From NCBI RefSeq assembly GCF_003790525.1, contig NZ_CP033635.1: 64,000 nt of DNA, one strand, 5' to 3'. This DNA comes from Escherichia coli (GTDB lineage: Bacteria; Pseudomonadota; Gammaproteobacteria; Enterobacterales; Enterobacteriaceae). The translations under genes were made by a program, and so were the position numbers. Shown piece by piece: positions 2,658 to 60,237 of this stretch. Positions within the stretch are counted from its first letter, which is position 1. Each line of letters begins with the position of its first letter. The notes under the pieces were generated by a model. It made no database searches. It worked only from the letters and a program-made list of their open reading frames with translations, and was not told the origin of the DNA.

Positions 2658-3272
2658 GATTGTCTGCTCCCCTGTCTTGTTATGGGAGCAGTATTCAGGA
2701 ATAAAAACATTCATTAAAAGAATTAGTCGTTATCGCACAGATGATTTTATTCTTAGCAAAAAAACGGCAAAGGAAAGATTAAATATGCAATTACTCCGTT
2801 CTAACAATTGGGAAAATTACTACACTTCATTTTAGTGATGCATAAACAACCACATTACGAGATTTATTACTTCATTATTTCTATCAATATCAATACATAT
2901 AATAAAACTATTATATTCGCATTGTATATATCACTGTATCATTCTCAATCACTCGCATATTACATTCACATAATGTATATAAACAATACTTGTTCACAGA
3001 ACATATTTTTTAAATGCAATTAATTGACAAACTAAATCACATCTAAATACAATGTATAAAACAAAATAACTATACATACCAAACATACAAACACTTAACA
3101 TATGAATTGCATAAAAACATTACCCAGTCGAACCTCCGGGTCTGAAAGCCCTTGCTTTTCAGTTATTAGCAACATTTAACATTTATAAATTAACATCTGG
3201 CTGCGCCAGAGATTACGTCTCTGAGTGCATCGTTGTGCTTGTAGTATAATAAATAAAATGGAGTGTCATTAA

Positions 3273-3944
3273 GTGGATAAGGTTTTAGATTCAGCCCTCC
3301 TTTCTTCGGCAAATAAAAGAAAGGGTATCCTTGCTATTGGCGCACATCCTGACGATATAGAATTAGGCTGTGGCGCATCGCTTGCTCGTCTTGCGCAAAA
3401 AGGAATTTATATCGCAGCCGTGGTGATGACTACCGGCAACTCTGGCACAGATGGAATAATCGATCGCCATGAAGAATCGCGCAACGCCCTAAAGATATTA
3501 GGGTGCCACCAAACTATTCATCTTAATTTTGCTGACACCCGCGCTCATTTACAGCTCAATGATATGATTTCCGCCCTGGAAGACATCATTAAAAATCAAA
3601 TTCCTTCTGATGTTGAAATCATGCGGGTATATACCATGCATGATGCTGACCGCCATCAGGATCATCTTGCAGTCTATCAAGCCTCAATGGTTGCCTGCCG
3701 AACTATTCCACAAATTCTCGGCTACGAAACCCCAAGTACCTGGCTTTCATTTATGCCTCAGGTTTTTGAATCCGTTAAAGAAGAATATTTCACAGTCAAA
3801 CTTGCTGCATTAAAAAAACATAAAAGCCAGGAACGACGCGATTATATGCGTCATGATCGCCTGCGTGCAGTTGCACAATTTCGCGGGCAACAGGTCAATA
3901 GCGATCTGGGTGAAGGCTTTGTAATTCATAAAATGATTCTTTGA
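3273..3944 (+). CDS. yaiS: LmbE/PIG-L family putative N-acetylglucosaminyl deacetylase
   Basis: GAHPDDIELG motif near N-terminus and HDADRHQDH metal-site-like motif; GGAG 9 nt upstream of GTG at 3273; start uncertain. Confidence 0.7.
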   Translation: MDKVLDSALLSSANKRKGILAIGAHPDDIELGCGASLARLAQKGIYIAAVVMTTGNSGTDGIIDRHEESRNALKILGCHQTIHLNFADTRAHLQLNDMISALEDIIKNQIPSDVEIMRVYTMHDADRHQDHLAVYQASMVACRTIPQILGYETPSTWLSFMPQVFESVKEEYFTVKLAALKKHKSQERRDYMRHDRLRAVAQFRGQQVNSDLGEGFVIHKMIL

Positions 3945-17626: not shown

Positions 17627-18460
17627 ATGCAGAACAATGAGCAGACGGAATACAAAACCGTGCGCGGCTTAACCCGCGGTCTAATGTTATTAAATATGTT
17701 AAATAAACTTGACGGCGGTGCCAGCGTCGGGCTGCTGGCGGAACTCAGCGGCCTGCATCGCACCACTGTGCGGCGACTGCTGGAGACGCTGCAGGAAGAG
17801 GGATATGTCCGGCGTAGTCCCTCCGATGATAGTTTCCGTTTGACCATCAAAGTGCGGCAATTAAGCGAAGGATTTCGTGACGAACAGTGGATTTCTGCAC
17901 TGGCTGCCCCACTGCTGGGCGATCTGTTGCGCGAAGTGGTATGGCCGACAGATGTGTCCACGCTGGATGTTGATGCAATGGTGGTACGCGAAACCACCCA
18001 TCGTTTCAGCCGATTATCCTTTCACCGGGCAATGGTCGGGCGACGGTTACCGCTTCTGAAAACCGCCTCGGGCCTGACCTGGCTGGCCTTTTGCCCGGAA
18101 CAAGAACGCAAGGAATTAATCGAGATGTTAGCCTCCCGCCCCGGTGATGACTATCAACTGGCACGAGAACCGTTAAAGCTGGAAGCCATTCTGGCGCGCG
18201 CGCGCAAAGAGGGGTACGGACAGAACTACCGCGGCTGGGATCAGGAGGAGAAGATCGCCTCTATCGCCGTACCGCTGCGCAGTGAACAACGGGTGATTGG
18301 CTGTCTGAATCTGGTGTATATGGCGAGCGCAATGACCATCGAACAGGCAGCGGAAAAGCATCTTCCGGCGCTGCAACGGGTGGCAAAACAGATCGAAGAA
18401 GGGGTTGAATCGCAGGCTATTCTGGTAGCGGGAAGGCGAAGCGGCGTGCATTTACGCTGA
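17627..18460 (+). CDS. mhpR: IclR-family transcriptional activator of mhp operon
   Basis: ORF 17615-18460; start at MQNNEQTEYKTVRGL gives 277 aa; N-terminal wHTH and C-terminal IclR effector domain pattern. Confidence 0.88.
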   Translation: MQNNEQTEYKTVRGLTRGLMLLNMLNKLDGGASVGLLAELSGLHRTTVRRLLETLQEEGYVRRSPSDDSFRLTIKVRQLSEGFRDEQWISALAAPLLGDLLREVVWPTDVSTLDVDAMVVRETTHRFSRLSFHRAMVGRRLPLLKTASGLTWLAFCPEQERKELIEMLASRPGDDYQLAREPLKLEAILARARKEGYGQNYRGWDQEEKIASIAVPLRSEQRVIGCLNLVYMASAMTIEQAAEKHLPALQRVAKQIEEGVESQAILVAGRRSGVHLR

Positions 18461-24885: not shown

Positions 24886-26040
24886 TCATGCCTCTTTGAC
24901 CCACAGCTGCGGAAAACGTGCTGGTGCAAAACGCAGGGTTATGATCATCAGCCCAACGACGCACAGCACATGAAACGCCCAGTCCATCAGGTAATTGCCG
25001 CTGATACTACGCAGCACACCAGAAAACCACGGGGCAAGCCCGGCGATGATAAAACCGATCCCCTGCATAAACGCCACCAGTTTGCCAGCAATAGCGGGTT
25101 GCGCAGAGTGATCGAGCGCCAGCAGCAAACAGAGCGGAAATGCGCCGCCCAGACCTAAACCACACACCATCGCCCAGAAGACCGGCAATTGCAGCGGCAG
25201 CCAGATAAAGCCGCAGAAACCCACCAGTTGTAACGCCAGCGCCAGCATCAAAAGTTTGCGCCGATCCTGATGGCGAGCCATAGCAGGCATCAGCAATGCC
25301 CCCGCAGCTTGCCCAAGCGTCATCAACGCCAGCAAGGAACCGCTGTACTGCGCGCTGGCACCAATCTCAATATAGAAAGCGGGTAACCAGGCAATCAGGC
25401 TGGCGTAACCACCGTTAATCAGACCGAAGTAAACACCCAGCGTCCACGCGCGGGGAGTGAATACCACGCGAACCGGAGTGGTTGTTGTCTTGTGAGAAGA
25501 GGCGACCTCGCGGGCGCTTTGCCACCACCAGGCAAAGAGCGCAACAACGGCAGGCAGCGCCCACCAGGCGAGTGTTTGATACCAGGTTTCGCTATGTTGA
25601 ACTAACCAGGGCGTAATGGCGGCACCAAGTCCACCGCCGCCCATCAGAGCCGCGGACCACAGCCCCATCACCAGTGGCGTACGGTGCTGAAACCGCCGCT
25701 TAATTACCGAAGGCATCACTGCCTGAATGATGCCGATCCCCACTCCACCAAGCAGTGCGCTGCTAAGCAACAGCGCACTTTGGGGGTAAAGCTCACGCAT
25801 CAATGCACCGACGGCAATCAGTAACAAACTGATGGCGACGCTGCGACGTTCGCTGACATGCTGATGAAGCCAGCTTCCGGCCAGCGCCAGCCCGCCCATG
25901 GTAACCACCGGCAGAGCGGTCAACAGGGCAGCCACGCTAAAGCTCATTCCGCTTGCCTGGCGCAATTGCGGTAGCAGTGGCCCGACGGAGGTGAGCAGTG
26001 GTCGCATATTAAGACCAATCAGCACCAGAACCAGCAGCAT
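24886..26040 (-). CDS. cynX: cyanate MFS transporter
   Basis: ORF 24886-26067 trimmed to MLLVLVLIGLNMRP start (384 aa). Confidence 0.85.
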   Translation of the reverse strand: MLLVLVLIGLNMRPLLTSVGPLLPQLRQASGMSFSVAALLTALPVVTMGGLALAGSWLHQHVSERRSVAISLLLIAVGALMRELYPQSALLLSSALLGGVGIGIIQAVMPSVIKRRFQHRTPLVMGLWSAALMGGGGLGAAITPWLVQHSETWYQTLAWWALPAVVALFAWWWQSAREVASSHKTTTTPVRVVFTPRAWTLGVYFGLINGGYASLIAWLPAFYIEIGASAQYSGSLLALMTLGQAAGALLMPAMARHQDRRKLLMLALALQLVGFCGFIWLPLQLPVFWAMVCGLGLGGAFPLCLLLALDHSAQPAIAGKLVAFMQGIGFIIAGLAPWFSGVLRSISGNYLMDWAFHVLCVVGLMIITLRFAPARFPQLWVKEA

Positions 26041-41411: not shown

Positions 41412-42461
41412 TCAGTCTGTTAGTGTGCGATTATCGATAACAAAACGATATTTCACATCACCTCGCAGCATTCGCTCATAGGCTTCATTAATTTGATCGG
41501 CCCGAATCATCTCTATATCAGCCACGATGTCATGTTCGGCGCAAAAATCGAGCATCTCCTGTGTTTCTGGAATGCCGCCAATCATAGAGCCGGCTATCGC
41601 ACGGCGTTTCATGATCAGGTTGAAAACTTCCGGTGATTTATGCGGTGTCGCAGGCGCACCAACCAGCGTCATGGTGCCATCACGCTTCAGCAAGGTGGTA
41701 AAATCGTCGAGATTATGTGGCGCAGCTACTGTATTCAAAATGAAATCGAAACTCTTGAGATGAGCCGCCATCTCATCGGCATTGCGTGAGTTAACAACTT
41801 CATCGGCCCCCAGGGCTTTTGCCGCTTCGCGTTTTGCCTCAGAAGTGGTAAATGCCACCACATGCGCCCCCATCGCGTGGGCCAGCTTAATCCCCATATG
41901 TCCCAGACCGCCGATGCCGACCACGCCCACTTTTTTTCCCGGCCCGGCCTGCCAGTGACGTAGCGGCGAATACGTGGTGATCCCTGCACACAACAAAGGT
42001 GCCACCGCCGCCAGCTGCTCTTGCGGGTGACGAATACGCAGAACATATCGCTCATGAACGACGATCTGTTGTGAGTAGCCGCCCAGAGTATGGCCCGGTT
42101 CGTCCGGCGTCGGCGAGTTATAGGTGCCGGTCATGTGATCACAGTAGTTTTCCAGCCCGTCTTCACACTCTTCGCAATGTTTACAACTGTCGACAATGCA
42201 GCCGACACCGACCAGATCGCCCGGCGCATGTTTTTCTACCTGATCACCAACGGCTACCACACGCCCCACAATTTCATGACCCGGCACACAGGGGTAAACC
42301 GTCCCCGCCCACTCGGAACGGACCTGGTGGATATCGGAATGGCAGACGCCACAGTAAGCGATTTCGATTTTGACATCATGCGGTCCCGGTTCACGCCGGG
42401 TGATATCCATCGGTTCCAGCGGTTGTTTAGCGGAATATGCACCAACAGCTTTGATCTTCAT
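41412..42461 (-). CDS. yahK: Zn-dependent NADPH aldehyde reductase (MDR/cinnamyl-ADH family)
   Basis: 349 aa; GHEIVG, CxxCxxCxxxxxxxC structural-Zn motif (CKHCEECEDGLENYC), GIGGLG Rossmann motif. Confidence 0.9.
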   Translation of the reverse strand: MKIKAVGAYSAKQPLEPMDITRREPGPHDVKIEIAYCGVCHSDIHQVRSEWAGTVYPCVPGHEIVGRVVAVGDQVEKHAPGDLVGVGCIVDSCKHCEECEDGLENYCDHMTGTYNSPTPDEPGHTLGGYSQQIVVHERYVLRIRHPQEQLAAVAPLLCAGITTYSPLRHWQAGPGKKVGVVGIGGLGHMGIKLAHAMGAHVVAFTTSEAKREAAKALGADEVVNSRNADEMAAHLKSFDFILNTVAAPHNLDDFTTLLKRDGTMTLVGAPATPHKSPEVFNLIMKRRAIAGSMIGGIPETQEMLDFCAEHDIVADIEMIRADQINEAYERMLRGDVKYRFVIDNRTLTD

Positions 42462-42731
42462 TGTGTTTACTCCTGATTAGCTATGTGTATTTGGCGATGC
42501 CTGATATGTCATCGCGGCAAAACGCGTCCATTGAATATAGCCAATATTTAAACCACCCGATCCAGCCCCAACATGCCGCGAGCCTGAATGAAACAGAGCA
42601 GCAACGTTCCCCATAAGGCGAGCGCCTATAAGTGTGATATTTGCTATCCGTAAAAGACAAAAATCGGCAAAACTGATGATATTTTCACGTAGACAAATAG
42701 TTATCTACACAACGTTGGTAATGACTCCAAC

Positions 42732-43235
42732 TTATTGATAGTGTTTTATGTTCAGATAATGCCCGATGACTTTGTCATGCAGCTCCACCGATTTTGAGAA
42801 CGACAGCGACTTCCGTCCCAGCCGTGCCAGGTGCTGCCTCAGATTCAGGTTATGCCGCTCAATTCGCTGCGTATATCGCTTGCTGATTACGTGCAGCTTT
42901 CCCTTCAGGCGGGATTCATACAGCGGCCAGCCATCCGTCATCCATATCACCACGTCAAAGGGTGACAGCAGGCTCATAAGACGCCCCAGCGTCGCCATCG
43001 TGCGTTCACCGAATACGTGCGCAACAACCGTCTTCCGGAGCCTGTCATACGCGTAAAACAGCCAGCGCTGGCGCGATTTAGCCCCGACATAGCCCCACTG
43101 TTCGTCCATTTCCGCACAGACGATGACGTCACTGCCCGGCTGTATGCGCGAGGTTACCGACTGCGGCCTGAGTTTTTTAAGTGACGTAAAATCGTGTTGA
43201 GGCCAACGCCCATAATGCGGGCTGTTGCCCGGCAT
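42732..43235 (-). CDS. insB: IS1 transposase InsB
   Basis: 167 aa [26 protein letters not shown]... Confidence 0.9.
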
Positions 43236-43429
43236 CCAACGCCATTCATGGCCATATCAATGATTTTCTGGTGCGTACCGGGTTGAGAAGCGGTGTAAGT
43301 GAACTGCAGTTGCCATGTTTTACGGCAGTGAGAGCAGAGATAGCGCTGATGTCCGGCGGTGCTTTTGCCGTTACGCACCACCCCGTCAGTAGCTGAACAG
43401 GAGGGACAGCTGATAGAAACAGAAGCCAC
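43154..43429 (-). CDS. insA: IS1 InsA
   Basis: 91 aa [43 protein letters not shown]; overlaps insB in the -1 frame. Confidence 0.9.
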
Positions 43430-43614
43430 TGGAGCACCTCAAAAACACCATCATACACTAAATCAGTAAGTTGGCAGCATCACCCACAACGTCAATAAGG
43501 GCATATTCTTCAAAGATAATGTCCATTTCTGCCGACACACTCATACTCAGGCCGCCCCACTCCCTGGGGCTTAAATCTCTTACTGTTCACCGTTGCAGAT
43601 ATATCAAGTTCGTA

Positions 43615-44997
43615 TCAACCTGCCACACTCCCCCACACCAGTTGCCCTTTATGGAACGTTGCGGTTCTCGGCGAGATACGCGCCACCGCCTCGGCGGAAC
43701 AGGAGGCGTCCACCAGCACAAAGCTGGCGTCATCCTGCGCTTTGGGCCACACGCGCTCGCCTTTTTCGTTGAGCGGCAATACATCGCCAGTGGCTAAAAA
43801 CAGCGAACGGGACAAATTCTGTTCGTTAGGACGAATATAGAGCTGCGCGTAGAGATTGGCTTTTTCCAGCATGTCGCCCAGGCCGTAGGGAGACCAGTGG
43901 TCGATAACGCTGTCGGTGCCGGTCATGACTTTTACGCCTTTGTCGTGCAACTGTTTGAGCGGCATATGCAGCGTGTCAATCGGCACCGTCGAGGCGATAG
44001 AAATTTGCTGCGCCGCCATCCGGTGCGCCAGTTCATCTACCTGTTGTTCGTTGAGCGTTGCCAACGCAAAGGCGTGACTGATGGTCAGCTTGCCCTTCAG
44101 CTGTGGCGTTTTCTCTACCGTTTCAACCATATAATTGATGGCTGCCACGCCCGACGGAGTGGTTTCGTGCAGGTGAATATCGACGCCTTTGTCGTAGTCC
44201 AGCGCAATCTGGAACATGGTGTCGAGGGATTTTTCCATCGCGCCATCAACACTGGTCGGGTCCAGCCCGCCGACGTAATGCGCCCCCGCCTGCATCGCTT
44301 CGCGCATTAAGGCTTCCGATTTCGACAGCAGCAAACCGTGCTGCGGGAAGGCGACAATTTCACACTCGAAGCCCGCCTGACGTCGCGCCAGCACCGCCTG
44401 CAAATTTTGCAGATTTTTCAGGCCGGAAACCGGTTCGATATTGCAATGGCTGCGGGCAATGGTGGTGCCTTTCGACTGCAATAAATCGATCAGTTTTTCC
44501 ACCCGTTCCTGCGTGTACGGTTGCAGTTCCGGCAGCATTTTCTGCTCGAGTTTGATCATGTCCTGGATAGTGGTGCCTGCCGGACGATTGAGCGAGCGCC
44601 ACGGCCCGCCGTAGAAGGTTTTGTCGAGATGAATATGCATGTCGCGGGTGGTGGGCAGCATCAGCTTACCGCCAGCGTCATAGTGCGGTAGCGTGGCGTC
44701 CGGATGCTGCTTGTTCTCGCGCAGGGCAACAATTTTACCGTCCTGAATCTCCACGGTCTGGCGCGCCGTGCGGGTCTGTACCGCCACGCCATTTTCGTAG
44801 TCAAAACCGGTTTCCAGCAGCACGTTATCGAGATAGTAATGCGGGTCAGTGATTTTCATGGTGTTGTTCGCTTCGCAGTTTAGGGTGCCAGCTACCCCCG
44901 CATGGGCGAGCGGCACTGAGGTACCAAACAGCGCGGCGGCGGTAACCATCTTACCGCTCTGGCTCAGAAATTCACGGCGGCTATTGTTTTCTTTCAT
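43615..44997 (-). CDS. yahJ: Tat-exported amidohydrolase, cytosine-deaminase-like
   Basis: 460 aa; twin-arginine signal SRREFLSQSGKMVTAAALFGTSVPLAHA; HIHLDK metal-binding motif paralleling CodA HIHLDT. Confidence 0.85.
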   Translation of the reverse strand: MKENNSRREFLSQSGKMVTAAALFGTSVPLAHAGVAGTLNCEANNTMKITDPHYYLDNVLLETGFDYENGVAVQTRTARQTVEIQDGKIVALRENKQHPDATLPHYDAGGKLMLPTTRDMHIHLDKTFYGGPWRSLNRPAGTTIQDMIKLEQKMLPELQPYTQERVEKLIDLLQSKGTTIARSHCNIEPVSGLKNLQNLQAVLARRQAGFECEIVAFPQHGLLLSKSEALMREAMQAGAHYVGGLDPTSVDGAMEKSLDTMFQIALDYDKGVDIHLHETTPSGVAAINYMVETVEKTPQLKGKLTISHAFALATLNEQQVDELAHRMAAQQISIASTVPIDTLHMPLKQLHDKGVKVMTGTDSVIDHWSPYGLGDMLEKANLYAQLYIRPNEQNLSRSLFLATGDVLPLNEKGERVWPKAQDDASFVLVDASCSAEAVARISPRTATFHKGQLVWGSVAG

Positions 44998-58548: not shown

Positions 58549-60237
58549 TTGCAATTTGACTACATCATTATTGGTGCCGGCTCAGCCGGCAACGTCCTCG
58601 CTACCCGTCTGACTGAAGATCCGAACACAACCGTGCTGCTGCTTGAAGCAGGCGGCCCGGACTATCGCTTTGACTTCCGCACCCAGATGCCCGCCGCGCT
58701 GGCGTTCCCGCTACAGGGCAAACGCTACAACTGGGCCTATGAGACGGAACCCGAACCGTTTATGAACAACCGCCGCATGGAGTGCGGACGCGGCAAAGGT
58801 CTGGGCGGTTCATCGCTGATCAACGGCATGTGTTACATCCGTGGTAACGCGCTGGATCTCGATAACTGGGCGCAAGAACCCGGTCTGGAGAACTGGAGCT
58901 ACCTCGACTGTCTGCCCTACTACCGCAAGGCCGAGACTCGCGACGTGGGCGAGAACGACTACCACGGCGGCGACGGCCCGGTGAGCGTCACCACCTCCAA
59001 ACCCGGCGTCAATCCGCTGTTTGAAGCGATGATTGAAGCGGGCGTGCAGGCGGGCTACCCGCGCACGGACGATCTCAACGGCTATCAGCAAGAAGGTTTT
59101 GGCCCGATGGATCGCACCGTCACGCCGCATGGCCGTCGCGCCAGCACCGCGCGTGGCTATCTCGATCAGGCCAAATCGCGCTCTAACCTGACCATTCGTA
59201 CTCACGCCATGACCGATCACATCATTTTTGACGGCAAACGCGCGGTGGGCGTCGAGTGGCTGGAAGGCGACAGCACCATTCCGACCCGCGCGGCGGCGAA
59301 TAAAGAAGTGCTGTTATGTGCAGGCGCGATTGCTTCACCGCAGATCCTGCAACGCTCCGGCGTCGGCAACGCTGGACTGCTGGCGGAGTTTGATATTCCG
59401 CTGGTGCATGAATTACCTGGCGTCGGCGAAAATCTTCAGGATCACCTGGAGATGTATCTGCAATATGAGTGCAAAGAACCGGTTTCCCTCTACCCTGCCC
59501 TGCAGTGGTGGAATCAGCCGAAAATCGGTGCGGAGTGGCTGTTTGGCGGCACCGGCATTGGTGCCAGCAACCACTTTGAAGCAGGCGGATTTATTCGCAG
59601 CCGTGAGGAATTTGCGTGGCCGAATATTCAGTACCATTTCCTGCCAGTGGCGATTAACTATAACGGCTCGAACGCAGTGAAAGAGCACGGCTTCCAGTGC
59701 CACGTCGGATCGATGCGCTCGCCAAGCCGTGGGCATGTGCGGATTAAATCCCGCGCCCCGCACCAGCATCCAGCGATTCTGTTTAACTACATGTCGCACG
59801 AGCAGGACTGGCAGGAGTTCCGCGACGCAATTCGCATCACCCGGGAGATCATGCATCAACCGGCGCTGGATCAGTATCGTGGCCGCGAAATCAGCCCCGG
59901 TGTCGAATGCCAGACGGATGAGCAGCTCGATGAGTTTGTGCGTAATCACGCCGAAACCGCCTTCCACCCATGCGGTACGTGCAAAATGGGGTACGACGAG
60001 ATGTCCGTTGTGGATGGCGAAGGCCGCGTGCACGGGCTGGAAGGATTACGCGTAGTCGATGCGTCAATTATGCCGCAGATTATCACCGGCAATCTGAACG
60101 CCACGACGATTATGATTGGCGAGAAAATGGCGGATATGATTCGCGGGAAGGATGCGTTGCCGAGGAGCACGGCGGGATATTATGTGGCAAATGGGATGCC
60201 GGTGAGAGCGAAAAAAATGAGTCGTGATGTGAACTGA
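58549..60237 (+). CDS. betA: choline dehydrogenase (GMC oxidoreductase)
   Basis: Apparent TTG start giving (M)[20 protein letters not shown]; FAD-binding GxGxxG; GGAGG Shine-Dalgarno 7 nt upstream; C-terminal residues may differ from K-12. Confidence 0.85.

Follow-up and report, generated by a model that had tools for sequence, protein, structure and literature searches.

Results

The yahJ-yahK locus and the inserted element

The window – the whole stretch of Escherichia coli DNA analysed here, 64,000 nucleotides in length – contains an IS1 element in the spacer between yahJ and yahK, two genes whose names are taken from the annotation of the identical sequence in E. coli SMS-3-5. Genes, element and flanking repeats are arranged as follows.

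41412–42461, minus strand: yahK, NADPH-dependent aldehyde reductase, intact; the downstream neighbour, 100% identical to the SMS-3-5 yahK locus
42708–42716, unstranded: copy of the target-site duplication on the IRR/yahK side, CACAACGTT; its final T, at 42716, stands against an ancestral C
42717–43484, minus strand: complete IS1 of the IS1A type, 768 bp, with IRL forming its yahJ-side end (high coordinate) and IRR its yahK-side end (low coordinate)
42717–42739, minus strand: IRR, the right 23-bp terminal inverted repeat, reading GGTAATGACTCCAACTTATTGAT on the plus strand; the same as the IRR of K-12 IS1A
42732–43235, minus strand: insB frame, 167 aa, giving with insA and a -1 frameshift the 232-aa InsAB'
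43154–43429, minus strand: insA, 91 aa, GTG start, repressor and inverted-repeat-binding protein; the protein is the same as K-12 InsA
43172–43180, minus strand: TTAAAAAAC (A6C), the -1 programmed frameshift site, in the insA frame at IS positions 305–313
43450–43477, minus strand: the element's own promoter-like site, CTGCCA-16-TATGAT, partly within IRL and 5' of insA
43462–43484, minus strand: IRL, the left 23-bp terminal inverted repeat, reading GGTGATGCTGCCAACTTACTGAT on the minus strand
43485–43493, unstranded: copy of the target-site duplication on the IRL/yahJ side, CACAACGTC, the same as the ancestral target
43615–44997, minus strand: yahJ, amidohydrolase, intact; the upstream neighbour

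The element interrupts no coding sequence. It is separated from the yahK ATG by 255 bp (42462–42716) and from the yahJ stop codon by 130 bp (43485–43614), so that the location given by the first-pass annotation is right and its distances of 256 and 131 bp are each to be corrected by one. That annotation had also placed IS1 in the same orientation as both genes, and insA, yahJ and yahK do all lie on the minus strand, with IRL towards yahJ and IRR towards yahK. The sequence within 25 bp either side of the target is 70% A+T, compared with 47.5% for the window. IS1 is said to prefer AT-rich targets (work attributed to Zerbib et al. in 1985), and the target fits that preference. The spacer also holds, 86 bp upstream of yahK, a 75-bp fragment of a pseudo 'hypothetical protein' (42548–42622, minus strand; LALWGTLLLCFIQARGMLGLDRVV*) that PGAP annotates in the identical sequence of SMS-3-5 and XDL, and which IS1 leaves untouched.

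Anatomy and identity of the IS1 copy

Reading of the sequence and extraction of the element show that 42717–43484 is a complete 768-bp IS1 on the minus strand, and that 42708–43493 corresponds exactly to this element together with both 9-bp repeats. On the plus strand ctaCACAACGTT is followed directly by GGTAATGACTCCAACTTATTGAT, the start of IRR, and at the other end ATCAGTAAGTTGGCAGCATCACC, the reverse complement of IRL, is followed directly by CACAACGTCaataagg. The two terminal 23-mers match one another at 18 of 23 positions and are the same as the IRR and IRL of K-12 IS1A. After a conceptual -1 shift at the A6C motif, InsAB' is open over 232 aa. Its InsA part matches the NCBIfam transpos_IS1 model (E=7.5e-26, profile positions 1–81) as well as an IS1/IS1595 zinc-binding domain, and its InsB part scores 145.6 bits against NCBIfam NF033558 transpos_IS1, for which the cut-off is 100.

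The length, IRL, IRR, InsA, A6C site and 232-aa InsAB' architecture are all shared with K-12 IS1A/IS1E. Relative to K-12 IS1A, 765 of 768 nucleotides are the same (99.6%), the substitutions being C>T at IS position 369, T>G at 444 and T>G at 486, and the two InsAB' proteins differ by the single substitution S130R. We class the element as an IS1 of the IS1A type on its length and ends, the insA-insB' frameshift, the match to the transposase model, the 8- or 9-bp duplication and the near-identity to IS1A; PGAP likewise labels copies identical to it 'IS1-like element IS1A family transposase'. Known features of IS1 include the A6C frameshift, repression by InsA and a weak promoter, PIS1, which overlaps IRL and with which the promoter-like site at 43450–43477 agrees in position; IS1A/IS1E represents the 'consensus' type that accounts for >99.9% of IS1 transposition in K-12 (PMC12428005). 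The description of the element as a complete 768-bp IS1 with both 23-bp ends and intact insA and insB is thus borne out by the extraction, the open frames and the IS1A match, and this copy appears, from its sequence, to be transposition-competent.

The target-site duplication and the empty site

The repeats abutting the two ends, CACAACGTT and CACAACGTC, agree at eight of nine positions, for which the chance probability is ~1e-4 (28/4^9). Empty sites are present in SMS-3-5, XDL, K-12, B1 and 4CC, each of which has CTACACAACGTCAATAAGG once, with CACAACGTC as a single copy. If IS1 and the left repeat are removed, the window is exactly the same as SMS-3-5 and XDL over 3.4 kb, whereas retention of the left copy does not give this identity. 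Because removal of IS1 and the left repeat restores the empty-site sequence, the target is CACAACGTC, and the repeats beside the element did arise by its duplication, whether as 9 bp of which one base fails to match or as 8 bp to which a further base was added. Target duplications of 8 or 9 bp are both on record for IS1 (PMC12428005).

The first-pass annotation had taken the direct repeats as the signature of transposition and had proposed comparison with empty sites in other E. coli genomes; with that comparison made, and with the single CACAACGTC found in SMS-3-5, XDL and K-12, its reading holds apart from the one-base imperfection, and coincidental repeats are refuted. Its suggestion that K-12 lacks an IS1 at this position was also correct, the K-12 site being empty.

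We considered whether the assembler could have misplaced an IS1 that is not truly at this locus. IS1 is a multicopy element, with a median of 11 matching places per E. coli genome having any, and misjoins are possible in drafts. A misassembly, however, would not yield two copies of precisely those 9 bp of which the empty site has one, nor place them so that they abut both IS ends, and collinearity with SMS-3-5 is otherwise perfect. We therefore regard misplacement as very improbable indeed.

Distribution and age of the insertion

Neither junction is found in one piece in any of 5,426 complete E. coli genomes searched with 140-bp queries centred on each junction. A k-mer for the yahK-side junction, in which the odd base of the duplication was replaced by N, has no match in either the GTDB species-representative contigs or the JGI metagenome contigs. 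The insertion is private to its source strain in all collections searched. It had been called strain-specific in the first-pass annotation, which is what these searches find, and the universal presence in E. coli that would have spoken against this did not occur.

Two groups of genomes appeared to be candidates for sharing the insertion and were rejected. With a 1.8-kb locus query, 13 of the 5,426 complete genomes gave at least 80% coverage, all of them joined from three pieces over a span of 2.5–3.0 kb; several of these were inspected and have an IS1 between yahK and yahL or inside yahL. The ST361 genomes have their IS1 48 bp away, with an adjacent deletion.

The age of the insertion is constrained by comparison with SMS-3-5, which we take to be an ST354 strain of phylogroup F. 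Local BLAST against the syntenic 65.5 kb of this genome gives no mismatches over window positions 1–42715, where identity ends, and one mismatch over the 20,516 bp of 43485–64000. Over the whole 64 kb, the window thus departs from SMS-3-5 in three respects: IS1 with the duplicated target, the T at 42716, and a single SNP. The SNP is the one difference in 63,231 flanking bases. The SNP lies inside betA, where window position 59879 is G and SMS-3-5 has A (record position 351163). More than 20 further complete genomes are ~100% identical over the flanks (44.5 kb in all, of which 19.5 kb and 25 kb lie on the two sides), and the alignments of the 100%-identical relatives end at base 24,999 of 25,000, which is window position 42715. 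Because the window is otherwise near-identical to SMS-3-5, the insertion post-dates a very shallow split and is very recent; 'relatively recent', as it had first been put, understates this.

One further genome, NZ_CP158311.1 (CS5L), matches window positions 17717–42716 at 100% in two pieces, with a span ~1.3 kb beyond that of the query, and must therefore have its own ~1.3-kb insertion somewhere in the lac-prp-yah region.

Other IS1 events near yahK

The yahK-side junction query is covered in two pieces in 33 complete genomes, and the matches listed, which include ST361-type EC20, share the same spacing. In EC20 (NZ_CP084900.1) an IS1A-type IS1 occupies approximately positions 3066–3833 of the extracted locus, equivalent to window position ~43541. 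Like the window IS1 it lies in the yahJ-yahK spacer with IRR towards yahK, although 48 bp further from yahK; unlike it, it has no target duplication and differs by 3 nt in the IS1 copy, and it represents an independent event. Its IRL abuts a truncated pdeL, which indicates an IS1-adjacent deletion in which yahJ through part of pdeL was lost.

An IS1B-type copy truncates yahL in strains B1 and MMC-J-0085. B1 retains the GAATATATC duplication of this copy, and the annotation of B1 lists yahK as a pseudogene containing an internal stop; MMC-J-0085 has the same yahL IS1, followed by a deletion removing yahK entirely. The events in these two strains indicate that the yahK neighbourhood has been struck repeatedly by IS1 and that yahK is dispensable.

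Identical copies elsewhere and the possible donor

The exact 768-bp variant (100% identical, protein WP_103215986.1) is present in 4 of 20,395 records, three of which are plasmids of 145–151 kb: pMTY9803_IncBOKZ, pEF5-18-41_2 and pPKF11-144kb. The fourth is the EF5-18-41 chromosome. The variant adjoins colicin M/B genes on pMTY9803 (IncK2/Z) and on pEF5-18-41_2, lies in an IS-rich region near tra genes on pPKF11-144kb, and is near yehL on the EF5-18-41 chromosome, where it has a perfect CAATAAATG duplication. It is thus found at at least four different loci with fresh duplications. Perfect 9-bp duplications flank three of the database copies, in contrast to the one mismatch in that of the window IS1.

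Because EF5-18-41 has both a plasmid and a chromosome copy, each with its own flanks, the variant is mobile, and the two copies suggest plasmid-to-chromosome spread. Their IRL-side flanks are similar; a shared origin was considered for these and rejected, the plasmid flank being the endpoint in cbi of an IS1-adjacent deletion. On pEF5-18-41_2, 1.1 kb is deleted into the colicin B immunity gene at the IS1, relative to pMTY9803.

The window copy probably came from another, identical IS1 in the same cell, and it is a reasonable guess that the window's strain carries a colicin B/M-type plasmid with the exact variant. The database copies are at other loci and illustrate candidate donor types only.

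The odd base at 42716

The one mismatch between the two repeats is at the base touching IRR, where the window has T at 42716 and the ancestral base is C. As the duplication is imperfect in this way, a textbook 9-bp duplication alone leaves a base unexplained. From the background of 1 difference in 63,231 bases, ~3e-4 unrelated substitutions are expected in the 18 duplicated bases, and because background divergence is so low the T is more likely a by-product of transposition or a sequencing error than an unrelated mutation.

We incline slightly to the view that the event was a plain 9-bp duplication and that the T is a sequencing or assembly error or a point mutation acquired after insertion. 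Consensus and polishing errors typically occur at repeat boundaries, no spontaneous transition is commoner than C-to-T, and the rest of the insertion is ordinary. The mutational form of this explanation is weakened by the divergence of 1 difference in 63 kb, at which a chance strike on exactly the junction base is very unlikely.

More tentatively, the T could be a footprint of transposition, in which the duplication was of 8 bp (CACAACGT) and a single donor-flank nucleotide came along with the element, or in which a base was misincorporated opposite G. The same low background divergence from SMS-3-5 (1 in 63,231) speaks for this, as do the reports of 8-bp as well as 9-bp IS1 duplications (PMC12428005). 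In IS orientation, the base directly after IRR is A in all three plasmid copies of the exact variant, which is the same as the odd base; since such agreement arises by chance about 1 time in 3 or 4, it is weak support for carry-over, and the fourth exact copy, on the EF5-18-41 chromosome, has C after IRR. Misincorporation would be consistent with the position of the base, as in the standard DDE geometry plus-strand position 42716 would be the last to be filled before the 5' end of the IS. The Ohtsubo laboratory reportedly described circular and linear IS1 intermediates with flanking nucleotides. Our literature search nonetheless returned no paper describing 1-nt flank carry-over by IS1, and a footprint would look no different from an error of sequencing or polishing at the edge of a repeat.

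The T also falls in a terminator-like hairpin that spans the junction at 42714–42731 (plus strand, antisense to the genes), consisting of GTTGG-N8-CCAAC and a T-rich tail. It supplies one of the five pairs, and the ancestral C would be unpaired; the hairpin is probably meaningless.

Promoters, RNA and the possible effect on yahK

A strict sigma-70 scan of 42300–43750 has a single match, the element's own IRL site at 43477–43450. The relaxed scan used a position-weight matrix of our own, with a consensus score of 17.3; over the 255 bp nearest yahK, its list of promoter-like sites is the same for the filled allele as for the empty one. In neither the strict nor the relaxed scan is there a new promoter-like site at or above threshold across the IRR junction facing yahK. 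All of the yahK-proximal candidate promoters are weak, with scores of at most 8.1 against 17.3 for the consensus. The best of them, ATAACT-17-TATCAT, scores 8.1 and has its -35 hexamer at 42704–42699, 13 bp from the IS1 end; if this is a real promoter, its upstream region is now replaced by IS1 DNA. The insertion had initially been described as lying between yahJ and the yahK promoter. Its place in the yahJ-yahK spacer stands, whereas the promoter location had been assumed, and no strong consensus occurs in the spacer.

No Rfam family is found anywhere in the window. The RNA from yahJ to IS1 has a short GCCCCA/UGGGGC hairpin with no U-tract, and over 141 nt it folds no better than shuffled sequence does (z = -0.94); for both reasons there is no evidence of an intrinsic terminator parted from yahK by IS1. 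The literature searched contains no experimental yahK transcription start site or regulator; what it returned for yahK was genomic SELEX peaks inside yahK-yahL and metabolic-engineering uses of yahK.

These data bear on a rival reading, in which the insertion is a regulatory mutation, perhaps a selected one, with a substantial effect on yahK expression. The first-pass annotation had raised an effect on yahK, by displaced regulatory DNA or by read-through, as a possibility. Higher expression could result if transcription read out of IS1 or if silencing DNA upstream had been removed; lower expression could result if IS1 exerted polarity on transcripts reading through from yahJ, or if an activator site or UP element had been displaced. 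Classical genetics holds that IS1 is polar whichever way it lies. The orientation of insA towards yahK, the best promoter-like site of the spacer abutting the insertion point, and the second, independent IS1 in the same orientation 48 bp away in the ST361 lineage all lend this some plausibility, and an upstream IS1 is a documented activator, for example of blaTEM, acrEF and bgl (PMC9330008, PMC12428005). Yet the likeness to the IS1 hybrid promoters and activation at blaTEM-1, blaTEM-6, acrEF and bgl (PMC9330008; bgl assays PMC12428005) is positional only: there too IS1 is upstream and on the same strand, whereas here no -35/-10 pair spans the IRR junction, which is 255 bp from the start codon. 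The IRR junction forms no hybrid promoter and the yahK-proximal promoter-like sites are unchanged, while the element's own promoter is extremely weak and repressed by InsA (PMC12428005). Presence in a single genome gives no sign of selection, the ST361 insertion with its adjacent deletion into pdeL is not a comparable clean promoter event, and the literature offers no yahK start site or regulator to mark anything functional as displaced. A regulatory role is, on these grounds, unlikely.

The element itself may also respond to transcription: transcripts that enter IS1 from its upstream side increase both the expression of transposase and the rate of transposition (PMC12428005). Since yahJ is transcribed towards IRL, any read-through could give the window copy a modest stimulus.

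Discussion

We conclude, with a probability of roughly 0.9, that a complete IS1 of the IS1A type inserted very recently, and privately to this strain, into the yahJ-yahK spacer, and that it is most likely a neutral or nearly neutral passenger. The host is an E. coli strain almost sequence-identical to SMS-3-5, and the target an AT-rich non-coding spacer. The element's own DDE transposase, InsAB', made through the -1 frameshift at A6C, would perform the insertion; a staggered cut of the target by InsAB', followed by repair, would then duplicate CACAACGTC. Alternatively, 8 bp may have been duplicated and one extra T added. At most, transcripts reading through from yahJ would be stopped by the insertion, and any regulatory DNA far upstream would now lie 777 bp further off. 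Neutrality or near-neutrality is most likely because the insertion spares every gene and known RNA, leaves the yahK-proximal 255 bp as they were, and forms no new promoter. The comparisons show how the element is built, that its target was duplicated, that other genomes lack it and that it is recent; its donor, its neutrality and the source of the T are inferred. We give little credence to the bolder view that the T at 42716 is a real footprint, from an 8-bp duplication with one donor nucleotide, or that the insertion is a selected change in yahK expression.

This is a routine IS1 transposition into an AT-rich spacer by a kind of element that is already known, and its significance beyond strain typing is very small. 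If yahK expression were changed, aldehyde detoxification could alter slightly, and nothing here points to such a change. The imperfect duplication is the sole unusual detail of the insertion and a minor curiosity of IS1 end processing; were it a true footprint, natural IS1 insertions might sometimes record their donor site. For typing, this isolate can be told from near-identical SMS-3-5-like genomes by the junction, which is unique to it. For the family, the insertion suggests, as far as can be judged from sequence, activity in the SMS-3-5-like lineage of an IS1A-type variant whose other known copies are mainly on colicin B/M-type plasmids.
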